Below, piece after piece: positions 9,722 through 60,682 of a DNA stretch of 64,000 nucleotides (the stretch's first letter is position 1; every line of letters begins with the position of its first letter). Source of the stretch: Spironucleus salmonicida (Eukaryota); the NCBI RefSeq assembly GCF_000497125.1, contig NC_090597.1:817797-881796 (forward strand), written 5' to 3'. The position numbers were made by a program, and so were the translations under genes. The notes beneath the pieces were generated by a model that saw only the letters and a list, made by a program, of their open reading frames with translations, ran no database searches and was not told the DNA's origin.

Positions 9722-10729
9722 ATGGACAACAAATGTACAGATTCTGATACGACCACTTGTAGTACTGGATTTTTCTGTCCTGCTAACGCTGAGGACAGTG
9801 GTACTGCATGTACGGCATGTTCTGCGACTTGTGGCACCTGTGCTGGACCTGATGCCAATATCTGTATGTCTTGCGCCGACGGTAAGTTTATCAGCTCCGG
9901 TACCTGCACAGCCTGCGATGGTAAATGCACGAAATGTGCTAATAGTGCTACTGAGTGCAGCGAATGCAAACCAGGAAATCTGCTTTCTGGAACCACCTGC
10001 GAAGCCTGCCCGACAAATTGTGAAAATTGCGCTGGAGACAAAGCAGTATGCTAAATATGTTAGAACAGTTATTTTTTAAAAGATGGTAAATGTACTGTGT
10101 GTAATGGAAATATGACGGAAACATGCACGTGCGGCGACGCAGTTAACTGCGCTACCTGCAGTAGTGGCGATAGCAAAATGTGCGGAAACTGCATCACTGG
10201 CTACGACAAGCATACAGATGGTACCTGTACTATCTGCGATAGGGATTATTTAATGGTAGGAATGGTGTGCAAAAAATGCAACGATAAGTGTGCTACGTGT
10301 TCCAAAGGCCTTGATTTATGTGATACATGTAAGCCTGGTAATCAGATTACCATCAACTAAACCTGTCAGGCTGATTGTAATCCAGTGCAAACAGATGGAT
10401 AAGCCTGCGTTGGGACCGGTACTACAGCATGCGGAAATGAAGCCCAAATAACGGAGTGCAAGTGTACAGATGCGAAGAACTGCTTAATCTGCGGAACTGA
10501 TAACACTAAGTGCGGTTCCTGTCTGCCTGGATACAAGCTAGAGGCTGATGAATGTAAAAATTGCGATGATGGGGTTGAACAGACTGGAGACTTCTGCTTC
10601 GCCCCCAGAAAGGAATCTGGGAACCTCTCAGGCGGTGCGGTGACCGGAATTGTGATTGCTGTGCTGGTGGTAGTAGGAGCTGTCGGAGGGGGTCTAGCGT
10701 ATTACTTCACCAAGAAGGCGAAGAAATGA
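9722..10729 (+). CDS. Cysteine-rich membrane protein 1 (VSP-like), 335 aa
   Basis: MDNKCTDSDTTTCSTGFFCP...[35 protein letters not shown] then TGA. The track ORFs 9686-10054 and 10097-10360 join through TAR codons. Confidence 0.95.
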
Positions 10730-12077
10730 TCAAAATATTACAAAATTAATAGAATAATATATAATTTTATTTATATTTAAGTGTCAAGATTTATATATAC
10801 ATTATAAATTCTATTATTGACTAAACTATGATAAATAAATATAAAGTACTATTCGCCAGAATAATTTTATAATTTAGGCTCAATAAGTCGTTAGTGATGC
10901 GCTCACTTATTCTTTCTATTGTCAGCAATTAAATTTGATATCAATATTTTAAAATATGTTTAAAATATAAATAAAGTTTCCATATTCAGTTTTTGCAATA
11001 TTATTATTTATATATACAGAAATTTGTTTAACAGTGAATATCATAACTATATAATCATATATTCCCGTATTGCTACATAAGTCTCATTAATATTACTCTA
11101 TATTTAGTTAATTTTCCTTTACGAATATTGTAAATGATGTAGTATACTATGCAATAATGAATAATAAAATATATTCATAAATAATATTTTTATGCTTTAT
11201 CGTTTGTTAACTAATACTGACTCAATTTACAAAAATTTATATCTAATGCGTTAATCCGCTTACAATTATTTCAACTTTTATTACATCATATTTAATTTAT
11301 GATAATTTAAACTCTTTATTTAACATAAATAATAAGTACAAAATTAAAATTCATTATTATATTCAGGCTGACGTTAAATCGCATTTTATGTCGTAGTTTG
11401 ATATTTTAATTGTCAAATATTAAGTCTATTTACACAAAATCTAAAATTTATGTAGTTAAGCGACTGATAGCCTAAGTATATTTATCCTATACTACTCTTG
11501 CTTGTATAAACTTAATATTTTAAATAGGTTTTGCAATAAAAATATACTCTCAATTTGGAACCCAATACATAGGATTCATATTCGCTATTTAAGCCTTTCC
11601 GTGTTATTATTTTTACTTATTTGGAAGTTTAAATTGAAGCCCTATGCAAGAATTTTAACTATGCAAATTATCTATTAATATACTTTATAATTCAAATACC
11701 AATTATTTGAAATCTGTTCTATTTGCAATTGAAAATTACTACAACACTGCGTCTCACTAGTCCAATCTAGCGTTAAGCGACACGCAAACTCCACGAATTA
11801 TGCGCAATGCAAAATATGATAAACTGATGTTCACATACTCAAATAACATTACTTTTAGCACCGGAAGCTAACTAACTTTATTACTGCATGCAATATTTTA
11901 CCATCTGAAGCATAGACTATCAATTGCGGCAAACTTGTGCGATATAAGCTAGCAATGTCGTCTAGATTCAGTTTCGTTAAATTAAGTTGGTTTCATTTTC
12001 ATTTCTATTAACATTACAATTCCTCCCATTGATATTCCCATTCTATTCAACTTATATCACATTCCCTTCCTCCCCCT

Positions 12078-13361
12078 TCACTTCACTCCATTTTTACTCA
12101 GAAATAGTAGCCCCTCGCTAAATTTCCCCCCAGGACCCTCGCTAAAACGCCCAATTTCGCTCATGCAGCCCCCGCAGCGCACCCAACGCGATCCTGCGTC
12201 CCCGCTTTTGTAGTCAAGAAAAATGTGAATTAGAAATTGATTTTCCACTCCTAAAAGTGCGCCTTTCCGCTTCTTTGCGATTAGCTCGAGCTCGCTTTTG
12301 CAGATCAAAATGCCGCATTTTGCGCAGCAACTCGGCCTCGCGACGCTGCTTTCGGCCTTCAAATCTTCGCTTTTTAGCGCGATTTGCGACACTTAAATGC
12401 CGTTTTCGATGGTCGGGAACCGATTTGAGAGAGGGAGTGAAAAGTCGAATTTGAATTAGTTTTCTTGAGTAATTTTTTCGCTCAAAACCGCTCCAATTTC
12501 CGCACTTTCGAGTAAAAAGCATTCAAGTTTCCGGTGCGCTGATAGTTTTTCGGACGAAATTGCCAAATTTGAGAGCGAAAGCGCTTTTTTAGATAGTTTT
12601 TTCAGCAAAATTGAAGCGGAATTTTCGCGTTTTTCGAAGACGTTTTGGAGCTCATTTTCGAGGCTTTTGAAGCGGTTTTCGACCTTTCTGATTAGCTCGA
12701 CTTTGAGCGATTTTGCCTGGTCCAGCGACAGGCTTAACAGGTTCTTATTCACCTCGTTAATAGATAATACTTTGTGGAATTAATTTTTGAGGCTCACGAC
12801 CAATTCTCGTGTTAAATTAGATAGTTCTTGAGTATTTGCCTTCATTATATCATAAGCTAAATTAATTGGAAGAATGGTGTAGTTGCAGTAGGCGTTATTT
12901 TCAGAGCAAAATTCGCAAAGTAGCTGGTTCAATTCCGGGCAGAAGTGTGTTATTTTTTAAACTTCAAAATTGCTTTTTACGAGCACAGAGCTCTACAGGG
13001 CGCTTTGGTGGGTGTCGCACATGCACGCTAGGGGCTATATTTGCTCGTTGATGCGCTCTCGAACGTGGGAGTGGAAAACTGAAATTGAGTGGATTTCGAG
13101 GTCGCACTTCTCGCAGAGTAGGGTATCGCATGCACGGCAGGCGACGGCGGCGGTAGCACTGCAGTTCTTGCACCTTTCAGCGGGCCTGACTCTGGCGTTC
13201 TGCAGTGGCTGGAAGTCGAAGGGGCAGGAGCAGTCAAGCGCCTCCGCGCAGCACGCCGCGCAGAACGCGTGTCCGCAGTCAAATTCGCTGAATTCGTCGC
13301 TCGCTTGGAAGCAGAAATCGCAGTAGCTGCCGAACGGGAAATCGGGAAGCTCAGGATGCAT
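12078..13361 (-). CDS. RING / B-box / B-box-like / coiled-coil (TRIM/RBCC-like) protein with C-terminal Yippee/Mis18-like zinc domain, 427 aa
   Basis: Track ORFs 13035-13361, 12456-12752 and 12078-12392 share one frame joined by TAR codons. RING: CDFC..CGHAFCAAC..CPFD. B-box: CKNC..CRAC..LCEKCDLEIH..H. C-terminus: CAKC...CGGC..IG. Ends AAG TGA. Confidence 0.9.
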
Positions 13362-14479: not shown

Positions 14480-16030
14480 ATGATAAAGACTATATAAACA
14501 ACCTAGTATGTTATTCCAGAAGGAATCGATGTAAAATAGTTAATCAGCATACTAACAAAATATTAAAATGCTAAATCAGTTCATTAATTTTAATATAAAA
14601 TAGAAGAAAATATACTTATCATTATTTAAGATTCATTTAAATTCACGTTGGCAGATTTTAAGGAAAACTAAAAATTATTTACTATATAAGAAGCATACAA
14701 CCTCATAACGAAATGTATTTACGCATCCTATGATCTGGCTTAATAAAATTTATTTATAGGTGGATATAGGCTTGATGATTTTATCGTTATCTTGAAGAAA
14801 AAATGGATTAAAATAAAAATTGTCCTTAATATTAAAAAAATATTTTAATATTTAACAGCAAATTACCCATCTTGTATTGCACCTGAGGTTTTAACGAATA
14901 TTATTACAGAGAAGGCCGACTTTTGGAGTTTTGGAGTTCTTTTATACTATTTATTAAAAACTAAATATAAAATACACAAAGATGTTTTTGATAGGTACAG
15001 TTAAGTTAGTTTCTTAGAAAGTCTTCAGATATAGAATAAAAAATTTGTAGACTTTATTTCAAACTTGATTTAACAAGATTATAACTTACGATTAGGATAT
15101 ATTTAATATTTCTAATTTGATAATGAAATAAGAAATGTGTGCCTTCATAGTAATGATATTTAAACAATAAATACCTCTACGTTCGACTAAGTTTTATCAA
15201 GTTTAAAGCTGGATAAAGTTAGAAATTTAGGTCAAGGGTCCTTTGGAAATGTATTATTAGTCAAAGATAAAACCGCTAATTAATTTGCATTAAAGGTTGT
15301 TGAAGTTCGAAACTAAATGGAAATAAACCAAGCTAGCTCAGAAGCATGCTTTATGGAGTAAAATAGAAACAATAACTATATAATTTAGATAAAATTTATG
15401 AAGAAAGTGCGCATTAATGATAAATTCTTTGTATTATTTGGTTAAGAATATGCGGATTTTGGTGATTTAAGGTACTTTATGAGAATGTATGGAACATAAC
15501 TATCTTAAACTTAGGTTTTAAAATTGTTTTATGATCTTTCATAGGCATTATTATTAATGAAAGAGTAAAATATGATTCACCGAGATATAAAGCCTGAAAA
15601 CATACTGTTAATGTAAAAAGACAACAAAATAATTGCTAAGCTTGCAGACTTTGGTTGTGATGAAGTTTTATTGAATGGGTCGAGCTCTGATTGTCATCAT
15701 TTAATAGGTACACCAGGATATATTGCACCAGAAGTACTTACATAAGACTAAGTATCGTTTTCCGTTGATGTCTGGAGTTTTGGTGTAATGCTTCAAGAAT
15801 ATACGGAAGAATAAGAATTGATTTCAATGTGCTTAATTGAAGATTAAAATTAACGAGCTTAAATTGAGGTTATCAATTAAAAATTACAAATCTATAAAGA
15901 TTAAGTAGTATAGGTACATGAAGTTGAATAATCTACAAGCTCGGCAGTTTCACACTCATAATATAATTCTGTTAATTTATCTGAACTAAATAGTAACTTT
16001 ACTTTTAGCGACTTTGCTATATTATAGTGA
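14480..16030 (+). CDS. Tandem pseudokinase + Ser/Thr kinase (NEK-like), copy 1, 516 aa
   Basis: The C-terminal domain has LGQGSFGNV, FALK, EYADFGDL, HRDIKPEN, ADFG, GTPGYIAPE and DVWSFG. The N-terminal domain keeps only APE and ADFWSFG. Ends TAG TGA. Confidence 0.92.
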
Positions 16031-19000
16031 ATTTTTTGTAGGTTTATATTTACACCATATAGATTTATTCATTGTGGTGTTAATATCAGTCATTATTAAA
16101 TTTGATTAGTTTATGTATATAAAATTATATAATATTGTTTTTTTAAGTTTATATAAAATAATATTAACTTGTAAGGACGTCGATTCCATAATTAAATTAT
16201 ACTAATAAAATATTTTTAGTATTTTAACAAATTTATTATATAATATTTATAAAAATAATACAACAATTTGTGTTTAGACTTAATTCAGAAAATAATTTCT
16301 ATGATTAGTTATATAAAGTATTGATTTACTTATGCTAAAACTATAATGAGTAATTTATTTAGAATAAACCAAAATTTACCTATAAATTGATTGTATATAT
16401 TTAGTAACTTAAATTTTATACAGTATAATACATATTTAGAGATTAAAATATTTTTAAAAATGAGAACAACAAGTTAGTCGTCATAATACTAAATACCATC
16501 TGGTGTGAATATTTAATAATTATAGGATATATTAAATAGGTACCTTAATGCTAAGTCTGTACATCCTTTTGAATATAAAATTACAACAGATTAGATTATA
16601 ATTACATAGCAACCAATATTGTAGACTTTAGCAGGGTTTAAGGAATAATAAAAACTATTTACAATTTAGGAAGCGTACAATATTCTCACTAAATGTGTGT
16701 ACGCGTCATATGAGCTTGCTCAGTAGTCTATATTTCTTGGTGGTTATTGTTTAGATGATTTTGCTATTCAAGTATAAAAGAAGTGGATTAGAATAAAGAT
16801 TGTAGCCAATATTTCAAAGATTTTTAAATATTTAACTAGATAATTTTCAGACTGTACCGCCCCAGAAGTTCAATAGAATATTATTACAGAAAAAGCTGAT
16901 TTTTGGAGTTTTGGTGTTATCTTATACTATTTACTGAAAACTTCATACCAAATTCATAAGGATATATTCGATAGATATAGTCAATCGTGCTTTCTGGAAA
17001 GTCTGCAAATTTAAAATAAAAACCTGGTTGACTTATTAACCAATATGATAGAGCCAGATCATAATATCAGACTAGGTTACATTTAGTTCTTTACACTGGA
17101 TAATGAAGTTCGATCTACCTGTTAAGGTATAGGTCACATTAAAACCGTAAATACAGCAACCCTTGACCAAGTATTGCTTAATTTGAATCTTAAAAAAATT
17201 ATGCAAATAGGCGAAGGGTCGTTTGGTAACGTATTCCTGGTTAAAAATAATGATGGAGATAAGTTTGCTCTTAAAATTATTGAGGTCAGGAATTAAATTT
17301 AGATTAACCAGGCTAGTTCCGAGGCTTGTTTTATGGAGTAAAATAAGAACAATAATTCGATAATATAAATCAAATTTATGGAAAAAGTACGAATCAATGA
17401 CACTATTTATATCCTCATGTGCTAGGAGTATGCAGAATTTGGCGACTTGAGACATTTTATGAAACTTTATAGTTCTTAACTGGCATAACCTCAAATCCTT
17501 AAGCTGTTTTATGATATTTCTCAGGCAATGCTAATGATGAAAGAGTAAAATATGATTCACCGAGATATAAAGCCTGAAAACATACTGTTAATGTAAAAAG
17601 ACAACAAAATAATTGCTAAGCTTGCAGACTTTGGTTGTGATGAAGTTTTATTGAATGGGTCGAGCTCTGATTGTCATCATTTAATAGGTACACCAGGATA
17701 TATTGCACCAGAAGTACTTACATAAGACTAAGTATCGTTTTCCGTTGATGTCTGGAGTTTTGGTGTAATGCTTCAAGAATATACGGAAGAATAAGAATTG
17801 ATTTCAATGTGCTTAATTGAAGATTAAAATTAACGAGCTTAAATTGAGGTTATCAATTAAAAATTACAAATCTATAAAGATTAAGTAGTATAGGTACATG
17901 AAGTTGAATAATCTACAAGCTCGGCAGTTTCACACTCATAATATAATTCTGTTAATTTATCTGAACTAAATAGTAACTTTACTTTTAGCGACTTTGCTAT
18001 ATTATAGTGAATTTTTTGTAGGTTTATATTTACACCATATAGATTTATTCATTGTGGTGTTAATATCAGTCATTATTAAATTTGATTAGTTTATGTATAT
18101 AAAATTATATAATATTGTTTTTTTAAGTTTATATAAAATAATATTAACTTGTAAGGACGTCGATTCCATAATTAAATTATACTAATAAAATATTTTTAGT
18201 ATTTTAACAAATTTATTATATAATATTTATAAAAATAATACAACAATTTGTGTTTAGACTTAATTCAGAAAATAATTTCTATGATTAGTTATATAAAGTA
18301 TTGATTTACTTATGCTAAAACTATAATGAGTAATTTATTTAGAATAAACCAAAATTTACCTATAAATTGATTGTATATATTTAGTAACTTAAATTTTATA
18401 CAGTATAATACATATTTAGAGATTAAAATATTTTTAAAAATGAGAACAACAAGTTAGTCGTCATAATACTAAATACCATCTGGTGTGAATATTTAATAAT
18501 TATAGGATATATTAAATAGGTACCTTAATGCTAAGTCTGTACATCCTTTTGAATATAAAATTACAACAGATTAGATTATAATTACATAGCAACCAATATT
18601 GTAGACTTTAGCAGGGTTTAAGGAATAATAAAAACTATTTACAATTTAGGAAGCGTACAATATTCTCACTAAATGTGTGTACGCGTCATATGAGCTTGCT
18701 CAGTAGTCTATATTTCTTGGTGGTTATTGTTTAGATGATTTTGCTATTCAAGTATAAAAGAAGTGGATTAGAATAAAGATTGTAGCCAATATTTCAAAGA
18801 TTTTTAAATATTTAACTAGATAATTTTCAGACTGTACCGCCCCAGAAGTTCAATAGAATATTATTACAGAAAAAGCTGATTTTTGGAGTTTTGGTGTTAT
18901 CTTATACTATTTACTGAAAACTTCATACCAAATTCATAAGGATATATTCGATAGATATAGTCAATCGTGCTTTCTGGAAAGTCTGCAAATTTAAAATAAA

Positions 19001-19744
19001 AACCTGGTTGACTTATTAACCAATATGATAGAGCCAGATCATAATATCAGACTAGGTTACATTTAGTTCTTTACACTGGATAATGAAGTTCGATCTACCT
19101 GTTAAGGTATAGGTCACATTAAAACCGTAAATACAGCAACCCTTGACCAAGTATTGCTTAATTTGAATCTTAAAAAAATTATGCAAATAGGCGAAGGGTC
19201 GTTTGGTAACGTATTCCTGGTTAAAAATAATGATGGAGATAAGTTTGCTCTTAAAATTATTGAGGTCAGGAATTAAATTTAGATTAACCAGGCTAGTTCC
19301 GAGGCTTGTTTTATGGAGTAAAATAAGAACAATAATTCGATAATATAAATCAAATTTATGGAAAAAGTACGAATCAATGACACTATTTATATCCTCATGT
19401 GCTAGGAGTATGCAGAATTTGGCGACTTGAGACATTTTATGAAACTTTATAGTTCTTAACTGGCATAACCTCAAATCCTTAAGCTGTTTTATGATATTTC
19501 TCAGGCAATGCTAATGATGAAAGAGTAAAATATGATTCACCGAGATATAAAGCCTGAAAACATACTGTTAATGTAAAAAGACAACAAAATAATTGCTAAG
19601 CTTGCAGACTTTGGTTGTGATGAAGTTTTATTGAATGGGTCGAGCTCTGATTGTCATCATTTAATAGGTACACCAGGATATATTGCACCAGAAGTACTTA
19701 CATAAGACTAAGTATCGTTTTCCGTTGATGTCTGGAGTTTTGGT
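15557..19744 (+). repeat. Apparently perfect tandem repeat, period 1980 bp
   Basis: By eye, the base at position i equals the base at i+1980 from ~15557 to ~17764, including the AT-rich intergenic spacer. Confidence 0.93.
16460..18010 (+). CDS. Tandem pseudokinase + Ser/Thr kinase, copy 2 (chimeric)
   Basis: Same architecture and length as copy 1. The 5' part appears identical to copy 3 and the 3' part identical to copy 1. Confidence 0.88.
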
Positions 19745-19990
19745 ATAATGTTATAGGAATATACACAAGAGTAAAACCTTATTTCTCTTTGTCTGATTGA
19801 AGATTAGAACGAGCGTGCGGCAATTGAAAAAATAAACGAGTTGTTGAGCGTGTATAAAGACATAATAGTTTAAGTGATAGAGGTGGAGCCTTCAGTAAAT
19901 TCATTCACCGCCAGCTCTGAGTATAACTCTTTAAGCATATTGGAGCTGCAGAGTAACTTTACCTTCAGCGATTTTGCTATTCTAGAATGA
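18440..19990 (+). CDS. Tandem pseudokinase + Ser/Thr kinase, copy 3
   Basis: MRTTSQSS...IGEGSFGNV...HRDIKPEN...DFAILE then TGA. Confidence 0.92.
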
Positions 19991-35454: not shown

Positions 35455-35560
35455 ATGTGGTATGGTATGGTATATAATATTAAGTATAGTAGTATAATAT
35501 TAAGTAATATTAAGTATAGTAGTATAATATTATGTAATATTATGCGCAGTGCAGTGCAGC
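35455..35560. repeat. Short low-complexity tandem repeats
   Basis: TATGG repeats, a ~30-bp unit AATATTAAGTATAGTAGTATAATATTAAGT present about twice, and GCAGT repeats. Confidence 0.7.
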
Positions 35561-44865: not shown

Positions 44866-45095
44866 TCATTAAGAAACTAATTTAAGAAATTAAATTTTAA
44901 ATTACTTAATTTTAAATCTAAACTAATGTGCTAATCAGTTTTAGCTTTCTAATTCTTTAAATATTATTATTTTATAAATTAAGTCAATCTAAAATGTAAA
45001 GCTATGTTAATGTTAGTTAGCTATTGATCTATCAATTATACTCATTTGAATTTGAATTATAAATAATTAATATTTTTCCTTATAATTATGATTTC

Positions 45096-47480: not shown

Positions 47481-48237
47481 TTAGGTGAGGGATTAGTGCT
47501 TGGTGATGACGAATACAGATAATAACTAGTATTAATAGTTTTTAGTTTTTTGAGATTGTTATATTTAAAATTAAAGATAATAATATTTCATATAATGAAT
47601 TTTCGAAAAACTAAATTATAACACCTTATATTGTATTCCCTTGAATTGGGAAAACTTTAGCAATCGATTCATTGATTATTTAATTAATTATATACAAAAT
47701 ACAATTCCATGGCCCGAAGTTTATGGGTAATTATCGTAATTTATAAGTTTATTACAATATATTATTTTGAATTTCAAAATTATGAATTAAAAATAAATTA
47801 TATAAATTAATTTCTTATTTTGATTTAAAAATTAGTTTTTAAAGGTTTTTAATATATTTGATTAATTATTTATATATTAAAATATGCGTTATCATATGTC
47901 TATGTATTAACAATTTACATGAATTATATTTATTAATAATAAAGTCCGTATTTACGTAATACTAAATTATAATATATGATTATTTATTTTTATTACTATT
48001 TGAAAACTAATCTAAGTTAATATGAAATCTATTTTGTTTTTACTTTATCGTAACTAGCGTATTTATAAATATATCCGCTAAAAATTGTAAAAATTACTCA
48101 TTTACCTTAAGATAATCTATGTTATTTATATAGCTCATTAATATAAGTTATTCTATAAAATTCTAGTTTCTGTTATACCCATTTGAAATTTATGCAACAA
48201 AGTATTCATATTATTAGTATAGTCAGCTTCATTAAAA

Positions 48238-49107
48238 ATGAAAGAAGCAAGAATTTGCTCAGGTTAAAATAACACTTGCTTGGTTGATTAATATTGTCCT
48301 TCACTGCAGACTACTAACCTGCAATGTTAAACATGTTCTAAGACAATAAGAGAGCATTATGGTTGTAACTGCGTAGACTTTAAAATGATTAAGAATTGTT
48401 TAAAATGTTAAAATGGAAGATGCGTAGAATGTATATATCAATATTCACTGCAACCTAATGGCACGTGCTTTAAATGTGCGTTAGATTGTTTACGCTGTGA
48501 CAAAACGTAATGCTTTGAATGTATAGACGGTTATAATCTGAATTTATGGACTAATTAATGTGGGTTTCCGTGCGAAACTAATGCTGATTGTAAATATTAC
48601 AATATAGGCTATTGCAATAAATGTTTAAAAATCTGTGAATTTTGTGACTAATAATGTACTTAATGTTCTACAAAAGAATTCTGCACGAATTGCTATGTTG
48701 GAACAACTTTATTTAATGGAATTTGTACAAAATAATGTATTAATCGTTTAGTGGACCATTACTGCTTAAATGGAGAATTAGCACAATGTGATGAAAATAT
48801 AACTTCCCAATGTTATTGTAATGAAGTTTAAAACTGTAGAACTTGCAACGAATCTAAAAATGGGTGTGCATCTTGCATGCCACATTTTATAATGGGTGAA
48901 AATGATAGATGTACCTACTGCGAATCTGGATTCGAGCTAGTAGGTAAAATTTGCAGTCCAGTAGAAGATTTAAATCCAATTTGTCCAATTCCAAGTAACG
49001 ACACTATTGTTTTTAATATTTTGTTAGGAACATTAGTAGCTTTATGTATTATTTGGGGAATGCTCGATATTATTTTATGTAAAAAGATAAAAAATAAAAA
49101 GTAGTGA
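48238..49107 (+). CDS. Cysteine-rich membrane protein, copy 2, 289 aa
   Basis: MKEARICSGQNNTCLVDQYCP...TM...ILCKKIKNKKQ ending TAG TGA. Confidence 0.9.
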
Positions 49108-50189
49108 GGAATTTATTATTTTAAATAAACAAAAGCTTTCTAATACTTGATTTAGATTTCAGAATATGTTGTTAGTCAGATTTGAAATATCTAGATTTTT
49201 AATTGTATGAATGATACTAATTTTAGGTTTATAAATATTTAACTAGATCATAAATTTTGTAATTTCATAATATGGTTTAACATAATATTAAAATAACATG
49301 AGGATAATTCTACTATACAATGCTGACGCATACACCCAGATCAAATAGTACAATTATGATAAATTGAGAATACTAGTCTATAGATAAAGCGGAGTACCAG
49401 TAATAGTCAATGCCGTGTTAAATATTATAATAGTCAGTTTTGTCATTTTTGATAAATGTAAGTAAATATTATCTGCCGAGGCAAAATCAATTGCTACAGG
49501 GTAAGCATTAAAGAGATTCATCAAGGGTTGTTAATTACTGACTATCTAGCATAGATAGATTATAGTCATGTATGATAGCTAAAACTAATAATAGTAAGGT
49601 ATATGCTAGAGAAATATAGTTTATGAAGAATTAGAATATGCTATTTAATACATAAATCTAGATAAAAACTAGACTTCAATTTGATATATACCAGTAAATT
49701 GATTAGAATATCAAGACTAATCTTAGATATAGAAACTGCTAGTTAATTATTATGTTTTTCTTGTCTTATATAAACATTAGCTAACATAAAATGACATATG
49801 CGCCAATAATCTTAAATAAGTCCTCTCTCAATTGTACTTAGAGCTATTTATACCATAACATAGCGCTAGCATAAGATTTAGAATAAAAAGATTGTGCTGA
49901 ATGCAGTTAAGAGCGTGCAATGTGTTCAGGTAACTACTATCATAAATTGATTGTGAAAGTTAATATAATAGAGAATACTTATATTCCTACAATAATGTTT
50001 TCACTATTATATAAGCCTTTAGTAATATATTAACCCAGATCAAGCGTGCAGAGTATGCTAATATTGCTAATATGAGTCTATGGGATCATATGATATTTGT
50101 CTAAAAAGTAAAATCCAATAATAATACGATTGCAATTGCGACAGCTCTTGAGACTCCTTAATTTGCAAATCAGTAAATATTAAATGACA

Positions 50190-51350
50190 TTCATACTGAC
50201 ACCAATAACATAGTATCAACATACAGATAACCTGTGCAGCCTGCCTCCCACGCTATTATTTCAAGCTAATTACGTTTAAAATTATTCCAAGGATTACTAT
50301 CTGTTCTGCAAAGAGGATTCATCTCCGATGATGTGTGTACCAGTTGGATACACAATTTTATTCACTCAGGAACTTCTTGGAAACCATTTTAGTTAGGTAA
50401 TTGAGATATCTACTAATATCAGGTTTCTCAAAATTTCACACTTTGTGAAGTTGAAAATAGCGATAGATGCTAAAATGATACAGTATCACCGGATAATGAA
50501 CGCCATGTATGTTGAATCATCCAAAATAAGGAGTAACATGCTAGATACAACATATATAATTATTAACCCTGATCAAATGATATGAGGAAATGGAATAAAT
50601 GTGAAAATGGTTTATTCTTTAAAACGGGTACATACAAGATATAAATCATGAACAATTATAATTTTGCCTGTGGGTGTCGAAGAGCTGCACTAACTGTGAG
50701 TTGAAAAATTAGATGAAAATCATACCAGGTTAGTAGGCTGCGTGCTGTGCTTTTTTTAATGTGCGAAGAAGGATGGAAAATATGTTTCATACGCAGTCAG
50801 GAGCTCAAGGATGGTGAATTCTATCATGGTGGAAGGCATATCAAGTGTGGTACCGATGGTATATCCTCTTTGTGCACATGTGGTAATCTTCACACCTGCT
50901 TGCTCCGTGATGGGAGGGCCTCAATCCAGTGCATGAGAGGCTTCCTTCTGTCTGATTACCCATGCTACTGATATCATAATGTTATTATCTATATCAAAAT
51001 AGCTTCATGTAGTACTCTGAGCTGTAAAGAAGCATGCCGTCAAACCAATTTCGGGGACTATTGGTCAAATAGTAATCGATAGCAGCTGTGCGACTATCGG
51101 CCAGGTTATCTATTTTAATAAGAAAAGCAAGGTTCTCAGCTATCCCAGTACTGATAGCAACATCTTGTATCCATGACCTGTAACGTGGCGATATTAATCC
51201 ATTATATTTTAATTTAATTGGATTCATAAAACAATAAGGACCATATAATCTGTTATACCCTAGTATCACATATTAATCCTACTTTTCAGTGTAGGTGTAA
51301 TTGGACTTTTAGGATCCTCATTTATATTCAAAATTTAGTATATACAATAA
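50190..51350 (+). pseudogene. Decayed cysteine-rich pseudogene (duplicate of 2560-3720)
   Basis: Same broken Cys-rich fragments as in copy A. Confidence 0.6.
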
Positions 51351-51602
51351 TATATAATACGTACATAAATTTTTATAAAGAATCGCCATCGACCGCTAGT
51401 TTACTAAAACCAGTGTTATGCTCAAAAATTATATTAGCAATATTTTCGATTACTATAGTGAGCCTAAGTATGGGGAATTATATGTATTTTTAGGATTGAA
51501 AACCCCCACCTACACATGATTACAGTAGCATATAGTATGTTTTCTTGCCAAATATATTATATTTAAATTATATTACTAAGTTAATATTAGCGCAACTAGC
51601 GG

Positions 51603-52335
51603 TTCATGCCTTCTTGACGGAATATAAGGTAAGGCTGGCCTGAAGGCCCCAGTAACAACAATTCTGGATACTACGCTTCCATAGATGCTGCTAGATAGAA
51701 CTATCTTCGTATTTTTCGCATTTACCAGTTTAGAACTTGTACTCAGGGAGATAATAACATCATTTAGTATTCTCCTCACCTCAGATACGAAAGTTAGCAG
51801 TGTTTGTGCACCACAATCATTTGTTTGGACGTCAATTCCGCAGGCTACAGCAGCACTCCCAATGTATGCGCCACCCTCCGTTAATGCCAGCTCACAATAT
51901 GCTATCATCTTAGTTAATTGGTATTTAGTAGGCAACAAGATCAACATCGCACCAATCAACTCTATATCACCAGAGTTCCAACTTTTAGCAGAATTTAGCG
52001 CAAACTTCGTAAATTACTTAACAGTAAGCACATGCACTGAAAAAATTGTTATATTCCTGTAACCTGCTGGACAAATAGCTCCATATTTCAGAAAAAAGTA
52101 CTTATAACATATTTCAGAATTTTTTAATCGCAATTCCCACAGGCACACTCACAGGCCCTTCTACTACCCAAATGACCAGTATTTTACTCACTACACTTCT
52201 CTACGCATCCATCTTATTTAGCGCATGCTGCTTCAAGTATTCGGGCTGAAATCCCAGGCCTTCCACTGCGGGTGGAACAGTTGTAGCATTTTGCTGCTAT
52301 TTTATCAGTTTTAGTGGTATATACATTGATACAAG
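51603..52335 (-). pseudogene. Decayed CRMP pseudogene
   Basis: CELALTEGGAYIGSAAVACGIDVQ resembles the CRMP1 pre-TM module, followed by EYKFQTGKCEKYED and a remnant tail LYSVKKA*. Frameshifted. Confidence 0.65.
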
Positions 52336-52850
52336 TTTATATCTAATCAGCTGAAACGCCTTTACGATTTGAAAAAGTATACAGCGGAAACTAAATTTGA
52401 AAATAAAATATGCGAAATTATGGTATATGGTAAATGTATAGAAACAATGATTTGTAACTGAAGATGTATGTTAATAATATATAGGTCCAATACAATCTAT
52501 ATTGATAAATAATTTCAATATAATTTAAATATGATCTATTTAATATATTTTTTTAATATAAAATAATAATTTGTAATATGCGTAAATATTTCACATTACA
52601 TGAAACTTTTAATTGTAATTTAGTATTTTGAGGATCTAGTTTTATTTTTATATTCATATAAGTATTATATAATCAATAAAGGAAAAATTGAGATAGTACT
52701 ATTTAGATATAAATATATAAACTTTAAAAACTATCGTTTTTACTTTCGCACAATAATAATAATAATTATAAATAAAAACAAGTACGCAAATAATATCATT
52801 TATATTAATTCGTATATATAAGTGTAAATACAGTTTCTAAAGTTTATTAA

Positions 52851-54392
52851 ATGAACCCCTACATCTGCCCTACCAAAAACTGTCCAGATGGCACTGTTTG
52901 CCCAAGCACTGACAAAAAAAAGCCACAAATTTGCAAAGCGTGTGAAATATTCAACTGCAAGAGGTGCTAGTTGTCTTCACGGGGCAAGTGTTAAGCATGC
53001 CGATATGGATACTACTTAGAGAGTAATACCTGCAAGGCATGTAAGGAAAACTGTGAAAATTGTGGCAGCCGCGGATGCTCCAACTGTATCCCAGGATACA
53101 TAGTTAAAGACGGTTAGTGTGTTAAATGCGTGCAGGACTGCAATATCTGCAGTGGATAGTGGGTATGCAAAGATTGCAACCAGGGATTTTTTAAAGATAG
53201 ATTCCATAATTGTTAGCCCTGTTCCCTAGGTTGCAGTGAATGCACTAGCAAACGGTCCTGTAGCCGATGCTTACCTGACTATAATTTTATAAATAAAGTG
53301 TGCCAGAAATGCCCAGAAAACTGTATAAACTGCGAAGATAACGTATGTTATGAATGTATAGAGGGTTACAAGATTTTTGATAATGACTGCTTGCCTTGCC
53401 CAGAAAACTGCAAAAAATGTTCCAGATACTAAGAATGCTAAATTTGCAAAGATGGTTATTTGCTTGATAAGATGGCTAATACGTGCACGTTCTGTAAGGC
53501 CAACTGCCGCGCATGTTTGTCGAAGGATGTATGCGGCCTCTGCAAAGACCACCACGATCTGGTTGGTGGTGAGTGCGTTCCGAGCGAATGCAACATAAAT
53601 AATCCCTGCGGACCTAACTAGTTCTGTGATGCTAAAAGCACTGGCTCGACTTGCGTTAACTGCATGGAAGGATGCGCTACTTGTAATACCGCAGAGGTTT
53701 GCAGTAGATGCTCAACTGGCTACTTGAAAAAGGATAACCGCTGTTTGAAATGTTCTCAAAATTGCTAGCAATGTTCAGTAGTTGATACATGTGATTTGTG
53801 TTTGGATGGATATAGATTCACCAATGATTAATAGTGCGTAAAGGATTAGTGCGAAGATAAAAGAGGTTGTCCTTAGGGTAAGAGCTGTAAAGAACTTGAT
53901 TCTGGAAATATATGTATTTAATGTCCTGATTTATGCAATGTTTGCTCTGACACAGACACTTGCACAGAATGTTTAAAGTATGCACGGTTTTCGTCTGATG
54001 GAAAGTGTGTCGATGATTAATGCCAATAAAATATTAGCTAGTTCGCTGGATTTTACTGCAAGGTATAAGATAATGGTAATAGTTGGGAGTAGTGTCCTGC
54101 TAATTGCTTCACCTGTGATAGCAAAACTGTGTGCACCTAATGCAAAGATAATGCTCCTCCTGTAGATGGAGCATGTGTTATCTAAAACAACTAAATAAGT
54201 AACGGATCTATAATCGGAATCGTTGTTGGCATAATAGCTGTAGTTGGCATTGTTATAGGCGGAGTAGTATATGCTGTTTAAATGAAGAAAAAATCTAATT
54301 TAGTTTAAAAGAATAGTAATGTAAAACCTAATAAGTAAAACATATAATTTCAAATTGACGAATCAGTAAGAATACTGACCAAAACTGAATGA
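52851..54392 (+). CDS. CRMP2-like protein, paralogue of 5260-6801, 513 aa
   Basis: MNPYICPTKNCPDG... with the same length and nearly identical TM and tail, ending TGA at 54390-54392. Confidence 0.92.
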
Positions 54393-54565
54393 TGAATTCC
54401 CTCCACTATATTTCAATATATATTTGATAGTTTTTAACTGAACTTCGACTTCTCTATCCTCTAAGTACAATCTGTCTCATACCCCAAAACGCAAAAAGCA
54501 AATTTCTGAAATCCGAAGCAGCTACACTAAATTAATAAATATTTACATCCAACGTCTCACTTTCA

Positions 54566-55960
54566 TCATTACTACCTCCACTTCATTACTGTTTTCCGCT
54601 TTGCGACCTTCACCCTCCTAAGATACCAGAAAACTCCACCAGAAGCACCCAACACGACCGATTTAACGGCCAGCGAAATTCCTAATACTGCCCCAGAAGA
54701 CAGACGATTACCTTCTTCCGCACTTGCAAAGCAAAAAGTTCATATGGCAACAGCCCCGTCAGTACAATTCGCGCACGTACCATCTTCGATTCTGTAGCCG
54801 TATAAGCAGTCCCCACATTTTTTGCTGTCATCAGCTAAGCAAATTCTGCAGTTTAGGCTGGCCCCGCATTTGCATTCCGTGACCTGCCCGCGGCTCCCGC
54901 ACTACACAGCCTTACAACCAATGCAAGCGTGCCCGTCTGTTAACATATCCGCACAAACGTCTGATGCACGTTCATCGCTTAGCCTTTAGTTCAGCTATCA
55001 CACATTTTAGCGTTTTGCGAGCACGTACCGCACCTGGAATCGCACTTCGCACAGACACCTCACAGCATAAAAAGCCTTACGCGCAGTTGCTGCATTCCAG
55101 GTTCTTGTCGATCGCGTACCCAGAAATGCAGGTCGCGCACCTTCATAGGTTTTTAAGCTTACAGCTCCAGCAGTTAATTGACAGGTTCTATTAACACTGC
55201 TCTTTCACGTTACCAGAGCAGGTGAACCAGTTACATTTTCTATAAAAAGTATCTTTAGATAATCATGTACATAACTGGTCTGCGCAGCCCCTGCAGTCAG
55301 TGTTATCTTCCTTGCATACTGCGCAGTTATCAGTACAGTTTTTGCATATATTATCGCAGATTTAATTTATATCGCAACTGCCGTCATCTACTTTGCATTA
55401 TTTTTAGCATTTACCACGTTATACAGAAAAATTAGCTTTACAAACCGTGCCGTTATCGTTATTAGCTAAGTAGGAATTGCACTTTTTATCTGCACATGTA
55501 TCGCACTAGTTGCTTATGATAGAAACCCCATTCTTACAAATCGTGCAAACCGAGCTAGATACGCAGCTTTCAGGGCAGGAAGTACATTTTTCACCTTCCC
55601 ATCTAAACCCAGATTTGCACACCGCACATCTTCATGTACATTCTGTGCAGCTGATATAACAGATTGAGTTGGTCCTGCAGTCACCAGTCCTGGTGCATTT
55701 TTTCTCGCATCTCCTTTCTAGCATCGAAAATCAATTTTTGCACACCATCCATATCTCTTTATTATCTGACCAGGGCTTACATTTTTCGTCTTTTCAAGAA
55801 ACGCAAATATTGTTTTCGATCAAAAATCCTTACTAAAAAGTTGTGCAAGCGGAGAAAGAACTTGCATTTTGCTTAGTTGCAGGGCGCAAAATTTTCTATC
55901 GACGGCGCGAATCCGCTAAGACAGGATTTGCTGGTGCTGGCGTTATAACAATTTAGTACA
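54566..55960 (-). pseudogene. CRMP pseudogene
   Basis: VCADMLTDGHACIG...QVTECKCG...GAVAI*TFCFASAEEGNRLSSGAVLG... with an in-frame TGA at 54740-54742 and frameshifts upstream. Confidence 0.8.
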
Positions 55961-57984
55961 ATTTTGGGATTGCCGGTCTTGAAAGTTACAGATTTTCAGG
56001 TCGTGAGAGTTCAAATGATGTGATTTTGAAGGATTTGAGTTAATTTAAATATTTAGCTTTTTGGAGATAATTTAGAGCAGTTAGTTGTTTTAGAAGAAAT
56101 TCAGGGACTATCATTTTCCTGCATTTCTGACATTAATTTATGAGAAAAATGGTATTATGATTGCAATTTTAGTACTTTTTAGCAGAAACTGAGTTTTTAC
56201 TGCAATTTGCATAACAGTTATATCATGTATTACTTACAGTAACGAAGCGGTTTTCTGCGTAGAATGTGCAATGTGCAATTTTCGCGTTATTGTATTTTAA
56301 AAATGAGGTATTGCATGAGGTGTAGATTGAAAAATAATAGTTAGTTGTCTTTGCTGATGATTAGAAAATTAGCCTGGGTGAGTTGGGGAGGCGCATTTTG
56401 CGTATATTTGATTGATATTATATATAATATAGTATAATAAAAAATTGTTATGGTGTTATTAAGTTTTGTATTTCTTAAATTGAGATATGATAATATAGGT
56501 ATTAAATGTGCGATATCCAAAAAATGTATGAATTGGAAATAATGGGGTTAAAATATATTTCTGATAGAATTAAATAGGATTATGTAATTAATAATATAAT
56601 ATTAATTTATGATTATTTCTTTTTATTTAGCTCGTATATGGTGATAATAATACAGGTTAGAAATAAATGTACATTTTAATTGATTAGTTTAGTAGAATTA
56701 GTTATGGAATATATAAAAATCAATAACTCAATGTGAGACACAATTTATATTATAAAAATTCAGAGTGAGTAGCATTATAAAGATTGTTTTAAGTTTTTAT
56801 ATTACGAATATATTAAATTAGGTTCTGAAATTTTATTTTAGAAATTATTCGTTACAAATTCTTGTATTATGTATAATTCTATTATATATTATTAATATCA
56901 GAAATGCAATTAGTACCATTGCCTGGTAGATAATCTATTAACTTTAGTTCAGTAAGCAATACTAAATAAGAAAATAAATATTATTAAATTCTTTAAATAA
57001 CATTAATTTTACTTAATAATTGCTTTTGCAAATAACAACCTAGCATATTTTTTTTTCTAAATATGATCTTTAAAGATGGATTTAATATCATTATATAGTA
57101 ATTAAAAAGTAAAACAACATTTTTTAAAGATAATTACTATGCTGATTCCATTATTAAAATGATTTTTTAATATATTCTTAATCATAATATAAATTTATTT
57201 ATTTCAGATGATAATTTACTAGATTAATATTAAGGAGTTATATAAACCAATATCACACCATATTTTATGGATTATAGATTTACTTAAAAATAATGTCATG
57301 AGAGAACTATATTCTACATTATTCTAAAATTTAGAATCTAAGTAAAATAAATCACTCATAATATGGTTTAAAAGATTTTTCAAAGAACTTTCGTAATTAA
57401 AAATGCAAATACTTACTATAGTATTTCTATTAAAACTACTATGACATAGTTAGATTATTTTTAGATCAATTTATTGTGGAATAAATATCAGCACTAGGTA
57501 TTATTTTTATGAGTATAAATAATTTAAAATTATGTTTCTTCATATGGTATTCAGTAAAAATTAGATTTATTTAAACTATTGATAGATCTACTGTTATTAA
57601 TAATATATCAGTATATAATATTATATAAAACATTGTATTAATAGTTATTTTGATATATTTAAGTTATAATTAGGAATAGATAATAAGTAACTAATCGTTA
57701 TTATAATGAATAAATTATTCATTGTTCTATCAGTAATGTGTTATCTTAATTAATCTATTCTTAAAATATCGCTATTATAGTTTTTCCTTTATAACAAAAA
57801 ATTAACAAAATGAAATTATTTTAATTATACCTAAGAGTTATCATAGTATATGGCTCTATATAAAATTTAATATTATTGTTAAATAAATATGTAATAAAGT
57901 TTTGTATATATCTTATTATTAGTTAACGTATGCACATCATATATGATTTTAAAATAGTTAATATTAGATCCAATTAAACTTTAA

Positions 57985-58680
57985 AATGTATATTAGTGGT
58001 AAATCAACATTACCAATAAATAAATGCGAAGTCTATACTTTCTGTCCCTAGATGGCTGAAACGAAGTAAATATCCTAGAATGTAACAAAACTCATATTAA
58101 AAAAGGATAATGTTGCGTTTGTTCTAAAAATACAACTATAATAAATTATCAAATTTGTACTGATCATAACGTTGAGTTTGTACAGTCTATAGATAAATAT
58201 TACTACAAAATTACTGAACTCGTTCACCTATCATATGAATTGTGAAAATTGCAATGATACTTTAAAAATATATACAAAATACATCGAAGGTTTTATTTTA
58301 GACCAACTCAATTATATATAGACGGCAAGCTAATAAATAATGTTGATAATATAATAAAAGAGTTTCCTAGTATAAATAACGTAAATTCTACAGAAAATAG
58401 TGTACCGGCCTCCATTATCTATGTTTTGCACATTATATAAAGGTATTAATGATACTAAAATTCTTATCATCCAAGGATAATATACAAAATTACATACAAT
58501 TTCGTCAATGGTAAATACTGTCTAAATGGATTTATTACAGGTAGGGGTGAAGATTCTGCTTTGTAATATAAATGTGGACGCACTAGTTATTGCGTTACAT
58601 TTAATCGTAAAACAATAGTGTGTAAAAATATCTTAGAAGCATGACAAACGTAAAGTTGGTCTGAGTATTAGTTATTTTTA
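57985..58680 (+). pseudogene. Heavily decayed Cys-rich gene resembling the 606/48238 type
   Basis: Remnants NKCEVYTFCPQ, NCENCNDT and GKYCLNGF..QYKCG parallel NNCLVDQYCP and HYCLNG..QCYC. Confidence 0.5.
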
Positions 58681-59059
58681 AATACCTATACATATAGTTA
58701 TTAATAACAATATAGTATAAAGGAAACTTATTACTAGTTCTAAAATAACTGCGATCTTATCTAATATATTGAGAATTTTTAGTTTTTAGTTTTTATTATG
58801 TTATATTAGTATTATACAACTATAATTAAACTCAATTTAAAAATTTAACTGTTTTAAAGATTATAAGTTATTACGTATTTGGCATATATAATAAGTATTA
58901 CAATCAATGCATATAATAATAAAAGCTGCTTCTTTTCTTTTGCCCAATCTACTGCTATTCATGTATAATTACCTTAAGTAAATTTTATTAAATTATGCTC
59001 TTTTGTACATCATCAATTCCACACATATTATCAAATTTATCCAAAAAATATTTTACTTC

Positions 59060-59142
59060 CGTTTCAATATCTAAAACACGATACCGCCAATTCTCATTAT
59101 TATTCAAACTTATAATCTATGCATATTTTCATCCCCATAAAA
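59060..59142 (+). promoter_or_regulatory. Conserved CRMP1 5' flank, shared with 41568-41650 (minus strand)
   Basis: AAAACACGATACC..AATTCTCATTATT..TCAAACTTATAA..CATATTTTCA..CCATAAAA lies immediately before the ATG of both genes. Confidence 0.65.
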
Positions 59143-60682
59143 ATGTCAAACTAGTGTAGTCCTTCAAATAAAACTTCCTGCGATGCAGGTTACTTCTGTC
59201 CATCCAACGTATCAGCTGATGCCACAGCGTGTCTAGTCTGCAAATCAGAATGTGCAACCTGCACGGGAGACACCGCAGAAGCTGCTAAATGCTTAACCTG
59301 CGCGCCTGGAAAGTATCTAATCAGTGATTTCTGCACCGCCTGCGACGCAAAATGCGCTACCTGCACAGCAGAAAGCACCTGTCAAACCTGCAAAAATGGT
59401 AACTTTTTAAATGGAACCACCTGCTCAGCCTGCGTTTCAGGATAAACCATGGCATGTACCTGCGGCTCCGTTAAAAACTGCTCCACATGCGCGGCGGATA
59501 TGAGCAAATGCAAAACATGCATAAACAATTTTGACCCCTCTGGAGGCACCCCTTGCGAGAAATGCTTGTCAGGATTTTTCAAGGAGACCAAAGATGGGAG
59601 TGAAACTTGCACAGCCTGCTCTGCTAACTGTATAACGTGCACTTCTAGCTCGGTTTGCACAGGCTGTGAGAATGGGTTTTCTATCAACTCCAACAAGTGC
59701 GTATCCTGTGCAGACGAAAACTGCACTACCTGCACAGCTAACAAAGATACCTGCACGGTGTGCAAAGCTGACTTTTCTGTGGAAAATAATAAATGCGAGA
59801 AAAAAATGCAAAGTAGGTGATGACAGCTGCACCATGAACTAAATCTGCGACAATATCTGTAAAGACTGCACCGGGAGCTGCGCTACGTGTAAGGAAGCTG
59901 TCGACAAGTGCACGACCTGCAAATCTGGGTTCATTTTAGCAGGCGATAAATGTGAAGCGTGCCCCAAGGATTGTGCGAACTGTGACGATGACAAAGCCAT
60001 CTGCAAGCTTTGCAATGATAATTTTTTCACCGAAGATAATACCTGCACTAAGTGTGATGGAAATACGACAAAACAGTGCAAGTGCGGTGAAGCAGTTAAC
60101 TGTGCTACTTGTGAGGCTTCTAATAAAGAAAAATGTGAAACCTGCATCACTGGTTACAAAAATGGTATAGATGACACCTGCTCCACCTGCAACGATGGTT
60201 ATTTGATGGTCAAAATGATATGCACGAAATGCGAGTCAAACTGCGCCACATGCCACGAAAGCCTCGAAAAGTGCGACACATGCGCCAATTCGTACACAAT
60301 GAGCATCAATTAGACGTGCGAGAAGAACTGCTCTACTGCACTGGTAAATGGAAACGCCTGCATCGGCACTGATAGTTCTGCTTGTGGAAGTAAAGGGCAG
60401 ATAACGGAGTGCAAGTGTGCAAATGCTAAGAACTGTCTCATATGTAATGATAGTAATACGACGTGCGGCTCCTGCCTCCCTGGATACAAATTTGAGTCTG
60501 ATAAATGCGAAAAATGCGAAGATGGTTATTCTAAAACTGGGGACTTCTGCTTCATCCCCAGAAAGGAGGCTGGGAACCTCTCAGGCGGCGCGGTGACTGG
60601 AATTGTGATTTCTGTTCTGGTGGTGGTAGGGGCCGTCGGTGGCGGTCTGGCGTATTACTTCATCAAAAAAGGAAAGAAGTGA
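59143..60682 (+). CDS. CRMP1 with a single +1 frameshift in an A7 run (59800-59806); intact gene with a read error, or a young pseudogene
   Basis: [20 protein letters not shown]...KCEKK, then after the shift CKVGDDSC...[15 protein letters not shown]. The paralogue near 26000 has A6 at this site. Confidence 0.85.

Follow-up and report, generated by a model that had tools for sequence, protein, structure and literature searches.

Segmental exchange among clustered CRMP genes of Spironucleus salmonicida, probably by ordinary ectopic recombination

How does a surface-protein gene come to carry an N-terminus, a middle and a tail that each resemble a different relative, and does this betray a system made for building new antigens? 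The question is raised by a stretch of 64,000 nucleotides of the salmon parasite Spironucleus salmonicida (contig NC_090597.1, positions 817,797 to 881,796 of the forward strand; hereafter the window), which holds a cluster of genes that encode cysteine-rich membrane proteins (CRMPs) belonging to both classes, CRMP-1 and CRMP-2, together with the wrecks of such genes. An earlier note on this DNA had described the genes as mosaics and proposed that a modular shuffling system diversifies them, possibly with antigens assembled in a combinatorial way. As far as comparison of the sequences can tell, segments of these genes have very probably been exchanged repeatedly by ectopic homologous recombination, and a programmed system behind the exchange finds no support.

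Under translation table 11 just one open reading frame (ORF) of at least 250 amino acids (aa) is open in the whole 64-kb window, and under table 6, in which TAA and TAG encode glutamine, 65 ORFs of at least 200 aa are found. A protein search with gene H returned 27 matches at E<=1e-20: 23 are S. salmonicida entries, 22 of them under the name 'cysteine-rich membrane protein 1' or '2' and the last one called 'cysteine-rich protein', and the others are one Giardia muris pVSP and three proteins encoded by the window itself. The database relatives bear both names, CRMP-1 and CRMP-2; those cited below carry P numbers. The genes and blocks on which the argument turns are the following.

59143-60682, plus strand: gene L, CRMP-1 with a KKGKK tail, in two frames in the window, 513 aa when read through.
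58641-59142, plus strand: 5' flank of L, of the H type.
59143-59284, plus strand: N-terminal block of L, H-type (97% of 71 informative sites H-like), with the switch at 59282-59286.
59285-60355, plus strand: centre of L, mainly E-type (36% of 264 sites H-like, 64% E-like); some of its sub-blocks are closest to P0002 and to P0005/P0004, and the switch is at 60353-60358.
60356-60682, plus strand: tail block of L, comprising the last extracellular module, the transmembrane (TM) segment and KKGKK, of the D/H/P0009 type (77% of 111 sites H-like).
59800-59806, plus strand: frame switch of L, a run of seven A.
40179-41567, minus strand: gene H, CRMP-1, 462 aa, with a KKGKK tail.
41568-42053, minus strand: 5' flank of H, homologous to that of L (40939-42053 matches 59765-58641).
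25090-27252, minus strand: gene E, 720 aa, without KKXKK and hence CRMP-2 by definition; the closest relative of the L centre in the window.
9722-10729, plus strand: gene D, CRMP-1, 335 aa, with a KKAKK tail; its front is of the F/P0009 type and its C-terminal two thirds of the H type.
28142-29119, minus strand: locus F, a broken CRMP gene with no start and its tail out of frame; the closest relative of the D front in the window.
45096-47480, minus strand: gene J, 794 aa, of the CRMP-2 type; the most divergent paralogue and an outlier in the tests.

According to Xu et al. 2014 (PMC3916229), a CRMP-1 is characterized by at least three CXXC/CXC motifs, a C-terminal TM segment and the C-terminal motif [KR][KR]X[KR][KR]. 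D, H and L belong there by their CXXC motifs (19, 29 and 32, respectively), by a hydrophobic segment just before the tail, which a hydropathy scan and not a dedicated TM predictor places at residues 307, 434 and 485 (19-residue Kyte-Doolittle maximum of 2.3-2.5), and by their tails, KKAKK in D and KKGKK in H and L; E and J lack such a motif and are CRMP-2. The Pfam family VSP (PF03302) is recognized above its gathering cut-off of 31.4 bits in E (50.9), H (52.3), the CRMP locus B (49.6) and the front of L (31.6), and below it in D (19.1) and the rear of L (28.4).

The mosaic character of L appears as soon as it is compared piece by piece with its neighbours. In the N-terminal module L and H are 83% identical in nucleotides and L is 51-53% identical to E, J or D; over the following 348 columns the order is reversed, with 80% for L-E versus 66% for L-H; at the tail L is 80-81% identical to H and D versus 59% to E. 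The nearest-neighbour bootstrap of L follows the same course, giving H at 1.000 in the N-terminal module, E at 1.000 in the next 348 columns, and at the tail H or D at 1.000 together with E at 0.000. In the table 6 translations, one peptide of 27 residues is common to L and H and two, of 18 and 21 residues, to L and E, while the last 45 residues of L differ from those of H at a single position. Self-BLAST aligns L with H at 71% over 40170-40958 and at 69% over 40939-42053, the latter match extending some 480 bp into the 5' flank, and L with E at 75% over 1045 nt (25444-26481 against 60368-59332 of L), with E-L values of 0.82-0.88 in sliding windows. The CRMP paralogy seen by self-BLAST lies at 69-84% nucleotide identity, and the blocks are not near-identical. 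The best two-breakpoint model for L raises the log-likelihood from -306.1 to -242.0, and the first switch falls between AAK and CLTC. Among the 27 relatives the best partners of the successive blocks of L are, at the amino acid level, H (78%, residues 1-60), P0002 (69%, residues 61-220), E (70-72%, residues 205-350), P0005 (80%, residues 376-425) and P0009 (85%, tail), that is, no fewer than four different affinities along its 513 aa. L is best read as an H-type gene, by its flank, its N-terminus and the type of its tail, the centre of which would have been overwritten from E-like and other relatives. What the earlier note had seen in L, an H-like 5' flank and N-terminus, an E-like middle and an H/D-like TM segment and tail, is confirmed, and all the peptides that it quoted were found.

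The same change of affinity is detected by tests for which the genes L, H, E, D and J were aligned by codons, L being read through with an X at the frame break. In the triplet L/H/E, 249 of the 446 informative sites are H-like and 197 E-like; they are grouped in long runs, and the maximum descent reaches 81 (p=0.0002, 5000 permutations). Five of the seven triplets survive a Bonferroni correction for 14 statistics. In the C-terminal region shared by six loci (669 ungapped columns, 268 informative sites), the pairwise homoplasy index (PHI) is 0.313 against 0.389 +/- 0.006 after permutation (p<=0.001), none of the 1000 permutations being as low. Maximum likelihood (ML) bootstraps support in C_1-354 the grouping (E,L), at 82%, in C_355-510 that of (D,H) against the rest, at 96%, and in C_511-771 that of (E,J) against (D,H,L), at 80%, and the splits of C_1-354 and C_511-771 are mutually incompatible. 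In a sample of the family, a rough scan found two or more strongly supported best partners along the length of 11 of 28 proteins (60-aa windows, at least 36 identities, margin of at least 6), a count that is made on proteins only and that internal repeats may inflate.

Such a pattern could in principle arise without any exchange, through uneven selective constraint or convergence along the protein, and it is true that the TM segment and the tail are conserved in all members and that the cysteine motifs recur. Constraint, however, acts on all pairs alike and cannot switch the nearest relative of L between E and H, still less at synonymous sites, where the switch is just as present. The synonymous divergence (dS), calculated by segment according to Nei-Gojobori, is 0.26 between L and H in the N-terminal block versus 1.07-1.31 in the middle; it is 0.41 for L-E versus 1.31 for L-H in the segment mid2, and 0.79 for L-E versus saturation for L-H in mid4. 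Between D and H it amounts to 0.37-0.45 in the rear and is saturated at the front. The presence of the switch at synonymous sites rules out uneven constraint and rate variation as its cause, and the stretch of perfect identity between D and H described below, which extends to the synonymous sites while the same stretch is 47-66% identical in other paralogue pairs, points the same way. We regard an origin without exchange as scarcely credible.

Gene D provides a second case. It is 84.4% identical to H over 673 nt (10073-10739 against 40838-40171), and its front resembles the broken locus F, with 77% identity in nucleotides over 9867-10158 and 75% in amino acids over 63 residues; other partners of its N-terminus are P0009 (80% aa) and P0010 (68% aa). 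In the triplet D/F/H, 59 of the 291 informative sites are F-like and these are clustered at the front (p=0.0002). D evidently switches, by these site patterns, from an F/P0009-type front to an H-type rear. The claim that D shares its C-terminal half with H was correct, and its description as having an unrelated N-terminus was not: the D front has the same layout of motifs as the family, 56-57% nucleotide identity to H, and best partners of its own in P0009 and F.

Furthermore, D and H, which lie in inverted orientation 30 kb apart, have in common a tract of perfect identity.

10352-10487, plus strand: 136-bp exact tract in D, identical to 40421-40556 of H and encoding the stretch from INQTC to KNCL.
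40421-40556, minus strand: 136-bp exact tract in H, the copy of D 10352-10487.

The tract was first seen in a sliding scan, as a D-H identity of 1.00 in a 120-nt window, and it stands out from a background in which D and H are 82.6% identical overall, with 134 mismatches in 771 columns. In 10000 permutations the longest identical run was 79, compared with the observed 136 (p=1e-4); among the 461 sites varying among five paralogues, 88 consecutive sites are concordant, compared with a permutation maximum of 41 (p=1e-4). This is our own implementation of the Sawyer/GENECONV criterion, applied to one pair picked after the scan, and its p-value, uncorrected for the 15 pairs scanned, would survive such a correction. 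Over the 150 nt next to each end of the tract, D and H are 72% and 79% identical, and the stretch of the tract itself is just 47-66% identical in the other paralogue pairs, so that it is not a constrained element. The tract begins and ends at or beside conserved cysteine motifs, INQTC and KNCL. Apart from it and from the two large duplications described below, the window contains no exact repeat of more than 41 bp, and its exact repeats of at least 24 nt number 12. The absence of any difference in 136 sites would place the divergence of the tract below about 2% at 95% confidence. Two genes in inverted orientation, each with its own divergent sequence on both sides of an identical patch, point to a non-reciprocal transfer, i.e. 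gene conversion; it is from this orientation and these divergent flanks that we infer the mechanism, and the D-H tract would represent a young event of that kind.

The 5' flanks and the internal modules bring in another kind of exchange, and with it a competitor to gene conversion. The flanks of L and H, of about 500 bp, are 68% identical, versus 50% (maximum 54%) in shuffled controls and 49-52% for the flanks of D, E and J. The D flank at 9496-9721 matches instead 39603-39379, upstream of another locus of the cluster, at 69% by self-BLAST and at 63% over 469 aligned columns:

38686-39375, minus strand: locus G, a C-terminal CRMP fragment with 229 aa open and no N-terminal module.

So the 5' flanks seem to come in types, which travel with the coding blocks or apart from them. 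The number of modules also varies. One module of 46 aa, found in L and E, is missing from H, where the junction falls in the motif D.CT.CK..F; D is short of about 130 aa in comparison with L and E, and both E and J have extra N-terminal modules. The motif D.CT.CK..F stands at both sides of the 46-aa module in L and E, which would be the expected trace of an unequal exchange between internal repeats. Conserved cysteine motifs coincide with the breakpoints or adjoin them. The old mosaics might accordingly have been born chimeric, by partial duplication or reciprocal unequal crossover with little gene conversion afterwards. The shorter D and H and the additional modules of E and J speak in favour of such births, as do the 5' flanks, which in L and H, and likewise in D and G, accompany the N-terminal block, and a hybrid kinase gene of the window that is exactly what one unequal crossover between tandem copies predicts. 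Chimeric birth does not account for the inverted genes D and H, divergent on both sides of the 136-bp tract, which need a non-reciprocal patch, and at least four affinities within the 513 aa of L are many for a single event of birth. We hold it to be an unlikely, though not a far-fetched, account of the mosaics.

Is the exchange peculiar to the CRMP genes? Two other regions of the window serve as controls.

14480-19990, plus strand: kinase array, three tandem protein-kinase genes (Pkinase, 155 bits).
524-7237 and 48156-54828, plus/plus: segmental duplication of 6.7 kb, in direct orientation, 47 kb apart, holding two other CRMP genes (A/A' and B/B').

In the kinase array the middle gene K2 is 100% identical to K3 over the unit positions 1-1400 and 100% identical to K1 from 1301 to 2000, while K1 and K3 are just 39-78% alike outside the shared stretch; this mosaic is sharper than any of the CRMP mosaics. 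One unequal crossover between two tandem copies predicts such a product, which could otherwise be an assembly artefact. The identity of the 6.7-kb duplication swings from 70% to 99% in 200-nt windows, which suggests a patchy homogenisation after duplication. Since the patchwork is found in the kinase array and in the 6.7-kb duplication, it is a property of duplicated DNA in this region and not of the CRMPs alone. The GC content at third codon positions (GC3), taken as a mark of biased gene conversion, ranges from 0.21 to 0.54 in the CRMP genes of the window and overlaps the 0.23-0.67 of the other genes, with no CRMP-specific signal.

Assembly chimeras, or the polishing of paralogues with short reads, can also create mosaics, and the 100% kinase hybrid and the 136-bp tract are precisely the features that mis-joining or mis-polishing can produce; k-mer contigs bridge neither of them. 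We compared with positions 40101-60100 the contigs of two DNA runs (X1 and X3) and of two runs guessed to be RNA, among them X6. The DNA contigs of both X1 and X3 show 0 differences over 40563-41287 of H (725 nt), contigs of 2.0-2.2 kb span neighbouring loci, and the public proteome contains H and J exactly. Moreover, a chimera would be equal to its sources, and yet the blocks are 66-92% identical to their nearest relatives in the window. Since no block except the 136-bp tract is identical to another locus, and since the H contigs show no difference, the mosaics are not assembly chimeras; an artefact would be a highly improbable explanation. Local errors of assembly are another matter. The interval 59143-60682, treated as a gene in the earlier note, is not one open frame in the window: the frame changes at 59800-59806, the public protein set holds just the last 282 aa of L (P0011), and two of the three covering runs do not reproduce the break, the run of A being one letter shorter in X3 (355.7/355.7) and in X6 (2.7/2.7) while X1 (0/16.4) has it at the length seen in the window. 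A miscalled homopolymer or a difference between alleles may account for the frame break.

Some differences between the runs and the window have an allelic look. Locus I (42443-44107 in this comparison) shows many allele-like differences to the window in X1 and X6 that are absent in X3, and five differences fall within 42 nt of H (41290-41331) in both DNA runs, right after the 725-nt contig with none. When the latter were taken as a possible patch copied from a paralogue, two of the four comparable letters matched L and E, and no source paralogue was found in the window.

Repeated ectopic exchange with gene conversion as its main mode has to be weighed against several points that tell against it. 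In the old blocks nothing distinguishes gene conversion from a chimeric origin through partial duplication or crossover. In the 136-bp tract, it is the assembly and nothing else that links the tract to both sets of flanks, the k-mer contigs not bridging it: the longest H contig of X1 and of X3 ends at 40563, and the contigs were compared over 40101-60100, a stretch without D. The centre of L is just 64% E-like, so that E would not be the donor but one of its relatives. Two of the seven triplets fail the correction, with p=0.058 when D is set between H and L and p=0.044 when L is set between H and D. The comparison with the family covers 27 of several hundred members, and these as proteins only. 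Finally, approximately unbiased (AU) tests of all 15 topologies of D, E, H, J and L fail to reject one topology common to all the segments: (((D,H),L),E,J), numbered 10, is kept with a pAU of 0.13-0.64 in the four C-terminal segments, of 0.157, 0.643 and 0.455 in three merged C-terminal segments, and of 0.167 in the N-terminal module. The AU tests have little power on these segments of 150-350 nt, which are partly saturated, and leave 5-13 of the 15 topologies unrejected per segment. The ML tree of the N-terminal module supports (H,L) at 32% despite their identity of 83%, which is implausible; ML on short saturated segments is thus unreliable, and nearest-neighbour bootstraps were used instead. 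It had been stated that congruent trees for all the segments would refute the exchange. On this point the AU tests leave one topology standing and the bootstraps of 82% and 80% back incompatible splits; incongruence between segments would be shown only by site patterns, distances and bootstraps, not by AU.

If exchange took place, is it going on as part of a dedicated system, similar to that of the variant surface glycoproteins (VSGs) of Trypanosoma brucei, in which new CRMP antigens would be built during growth or infection with the broken loci as an archive? Some observations would fit. Five to six broken or partial CRMP loci lie beside intact ones, one of them (F) 77% identical to the D front, although its role as a donor is putative; one tract of 136 bp is young; the breakpoints lie at conserved motifs; the CRMP loci show clusters of allele-like differences; and S. 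salmonicida reportedly has no Dicer, no Argonaute and no RNA-dependent RNA polymerase (RdRP) (PMC3916229), so that control of the Giardia type is not expected. Against these stand the age and the nature of the blocks. Their dS of 0.26-0.45, together with best partners of 66-85% aa identity and no donor above 85% aa identity among the 27 database relatives, leaves no fresh donor-recipient pair in sight; a single exact tract exceeds 41 bp among all the CRMP loci of the window; the kinase genes and the generic duplication show the same patchwork; and the ratio dN/dS in the shared blocks is about 0.2-0.5, which is not diversifying. One RNA-like run covers H, J, A' and B', which gives no sign of a single expression site at the population level: the contigs of X6 extend over 45077-47340 (J) and over the three other loci, although such contigs show neither levels nor single-cell patterns, and next to no cover over L makes the RNA-like runs uninformative on its expression. 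Furthermore, the antigenic role of the CRMPs is itself only putative (PMC3916229, PMC6397501). Mosaics formed on the time scale of an infection from near-identical donors, as in the VSGs, are not found in the window, as judged with the 27 relatives and the one young tract. Given the block dS of 0.26-0.45 and the lack of any near-identical donor apart from the 136-bp tract, most exchanges are to all appearances evolutionarily old and at least one, the D-H tract, is recent. We therefore consider a dedicated shuffling system very doubtful. The earlier proposal of segmental exchange holds good, thanks to the switch of neighbours at synonymous sites, the PHI and the 136-bp tract; the part that made of it a modular shuffling for combinatorial antigen assembly does not, in view of the old blocks, the patchwork outside the CRMPs and the dN/dS of 0.2-0.5.

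The model that we favour combines these observations. Ectopic (non-allelic) homologous recombination would repeatedly swap segments among the clustered CRMP genes, mainly through gene conversion over short tracts and to some extent through unequal exchange among the CXXC repeat modules inside the genes. Both ends of an exchange would lie in or next to the conserved cysteine motifs, in which the paralogues resemble one another most. L would have kept an H-type backbone, made up of a 5' flank of about 500 bp together with the N-terminal module and the type of tail, and received a central segment of about 1 kb of E and other types; D would combine an F/P0009-type front with an H-type rear. As a by-product a family would emerge in which the N-terminus, the middle and the tail have different histories, and the process would be the general recombination of duplicate genes in this genome, not one specific to the CRMPs.

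The window, with at least 13 CRMP loci in all, contains the further ones listed here, and the five to six broken or partial loci are C, F, G, I and K together with a 73-aa fragment at 23614-23835.

510-1517: locus A, CRMP, within the 6.7-kb duplication, partner of A'.
5260-6801: locus B, CRMP, within the 6.7-kb duplication, partner of B' (Pfam VSP, 49.6 bits).
About 7337-8428: locus C, CRMP, broken or partial.
43267-44157, plus strand: locus I, CRMP, broken in the window, its N-terminal part in a different frame.
48238-49107: locus A', CRMP, the duplication copy of A.
52851-54392: locus B', CRMP, the duplication copy of B.
54740-55631, minus strand: locus K, broken, with CRMP fragments spread over two frames; its stretch 55307-55559 matches 59897-59644 of L at 75%.

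Two side observations concern the sequence of the window itself. Under the code with TAA and TAG as glutamine, the antisense strands of the CRMP genes are open over 250-390 codons, with a risk of misled gene calling. At 35475-35532, in an AT-rich spacer downstream of a 1909-aa gene, a 28-nt exact direct repeat occurs with its copies two bases apart.

Exchange of this kind has precedents in the diplomonads. Recombination among the variant-specific surface protein (VSP) genes of Giardia is supported by GENECONV and DualBrothers evidence (Adam et al. 2010, PMC2996952), and in G. muris 'recombination or segmental gene conversion' is described between VSPs and pseudogenised VSPs (PMC7641422), with PMC2996952 cited for G. 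intestinalis. For S. salmonicida, 138 CRMP1 genes (and 22 pseudogenes) and 248 CRMP2 genes (and 30 pseudogenes) have been counted (PMC9509377), and one sentence of that paper suggests gene conversion for the CRMPs; beyond this sentence we found no explicit recombination analysis of Spironucleus CRMPs in the literature searched, supplements aside. The statement that Giardia VSP switching is known as post-transcriptional or epigenetic had left out the published recombination of the VSPs (PMC2996952, PMC7641422) and the suggestion made for the CRMPs (PMC9509377). As to function, 189 of 385 cysteine-rich genes are reported as differentially expressed (PMC6397501), and the role of the CRMPs in antigenic variation is described as remaining to be tested (PMC3916229, PMC6397501).

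The CRMPs and the Giardia VSPs are both families of cysteine-rich CXXC type-I membrane proteins of diplomonads, arranged in arrays with pseudogenes, and both show significant fragments of the GENECONV type, exchange across sub-clades and a conserved 3' end as a common anchor. They differ in the genus, the genetic code and the tail motif (KKXKK in the CRMPs, CRGKA in the VSPs), and the CRMP exchange is shown between classes defined by their tails, CRMP-1 and CRMP-2, and takes in the 5' flank. The mosaic VSGs of T. brucei resemble the CRMPs as patchwork genes for surface proteins with broken copies nearby and short tracts. The VSG mosaics, however, arise in the course of an infection, by transfer from silent donors to one expression site, whereas the CRMPs consist of old blocks and have no known expression site, several of them are transcribed in one culture if the RNA-like run is taken as such, and genes without a surface role in the Spironucleus window show the same pattern. 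With ordinary multigene families, such as Plasmodium var or tandem arrays, the CRMPs have in common linked paralogues that swap short tracts at stretches of higher identity, a number of copies and modules that shifts by unequal crossover, and events of mixed ages; nothing essential separates them, and the CRMP finding belongs to this class.

Could an ongoing short-tract conversion among the clustered CRMP genes and wrecks nevertheless vary the surface of the cell, in place of the control that Giardia exerts on VSP expression with genes of RNA interference (RNAi), which S. salmonicida reportedly does not have? We think this quite improbable, and any role of the exchange in surface variation is something that we infer. 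If so, the D-H tract and the allele-like clusters would be snapshots of an active, possibly damage-driven, formation of mosaics.

In conclusion, a dedicated combinatorial system of antigen assembly is not supported, and conversion may be going on at a low rate. The mechanism is not of a new kind, since the same is known for the Giardia VSPs and many multigene families. What our observations provide is a demonstration at the level of the sequence, with coordinates, that S. salmonicida CRMPs very probably exchange segments, including across the CRMP-1/CRMP-2 divide: L is a CRMP-1 with sequence of the E type, i.e. CRMP-2, so that the exchange crosses the classes defined by the tail. As this divide is defined by the tail alone, and as the tail is itself a swappable block, the intermixing of CRMP-1 and CRMP-2 in the published similarity network (PMC3916229) would find its explanation. 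The finding is a warning against whole-gene trees for the CRMP family, and it sets a baseline, mostly ancient exchange with one recent tract, from which the rate of the process can be sought experimentally.

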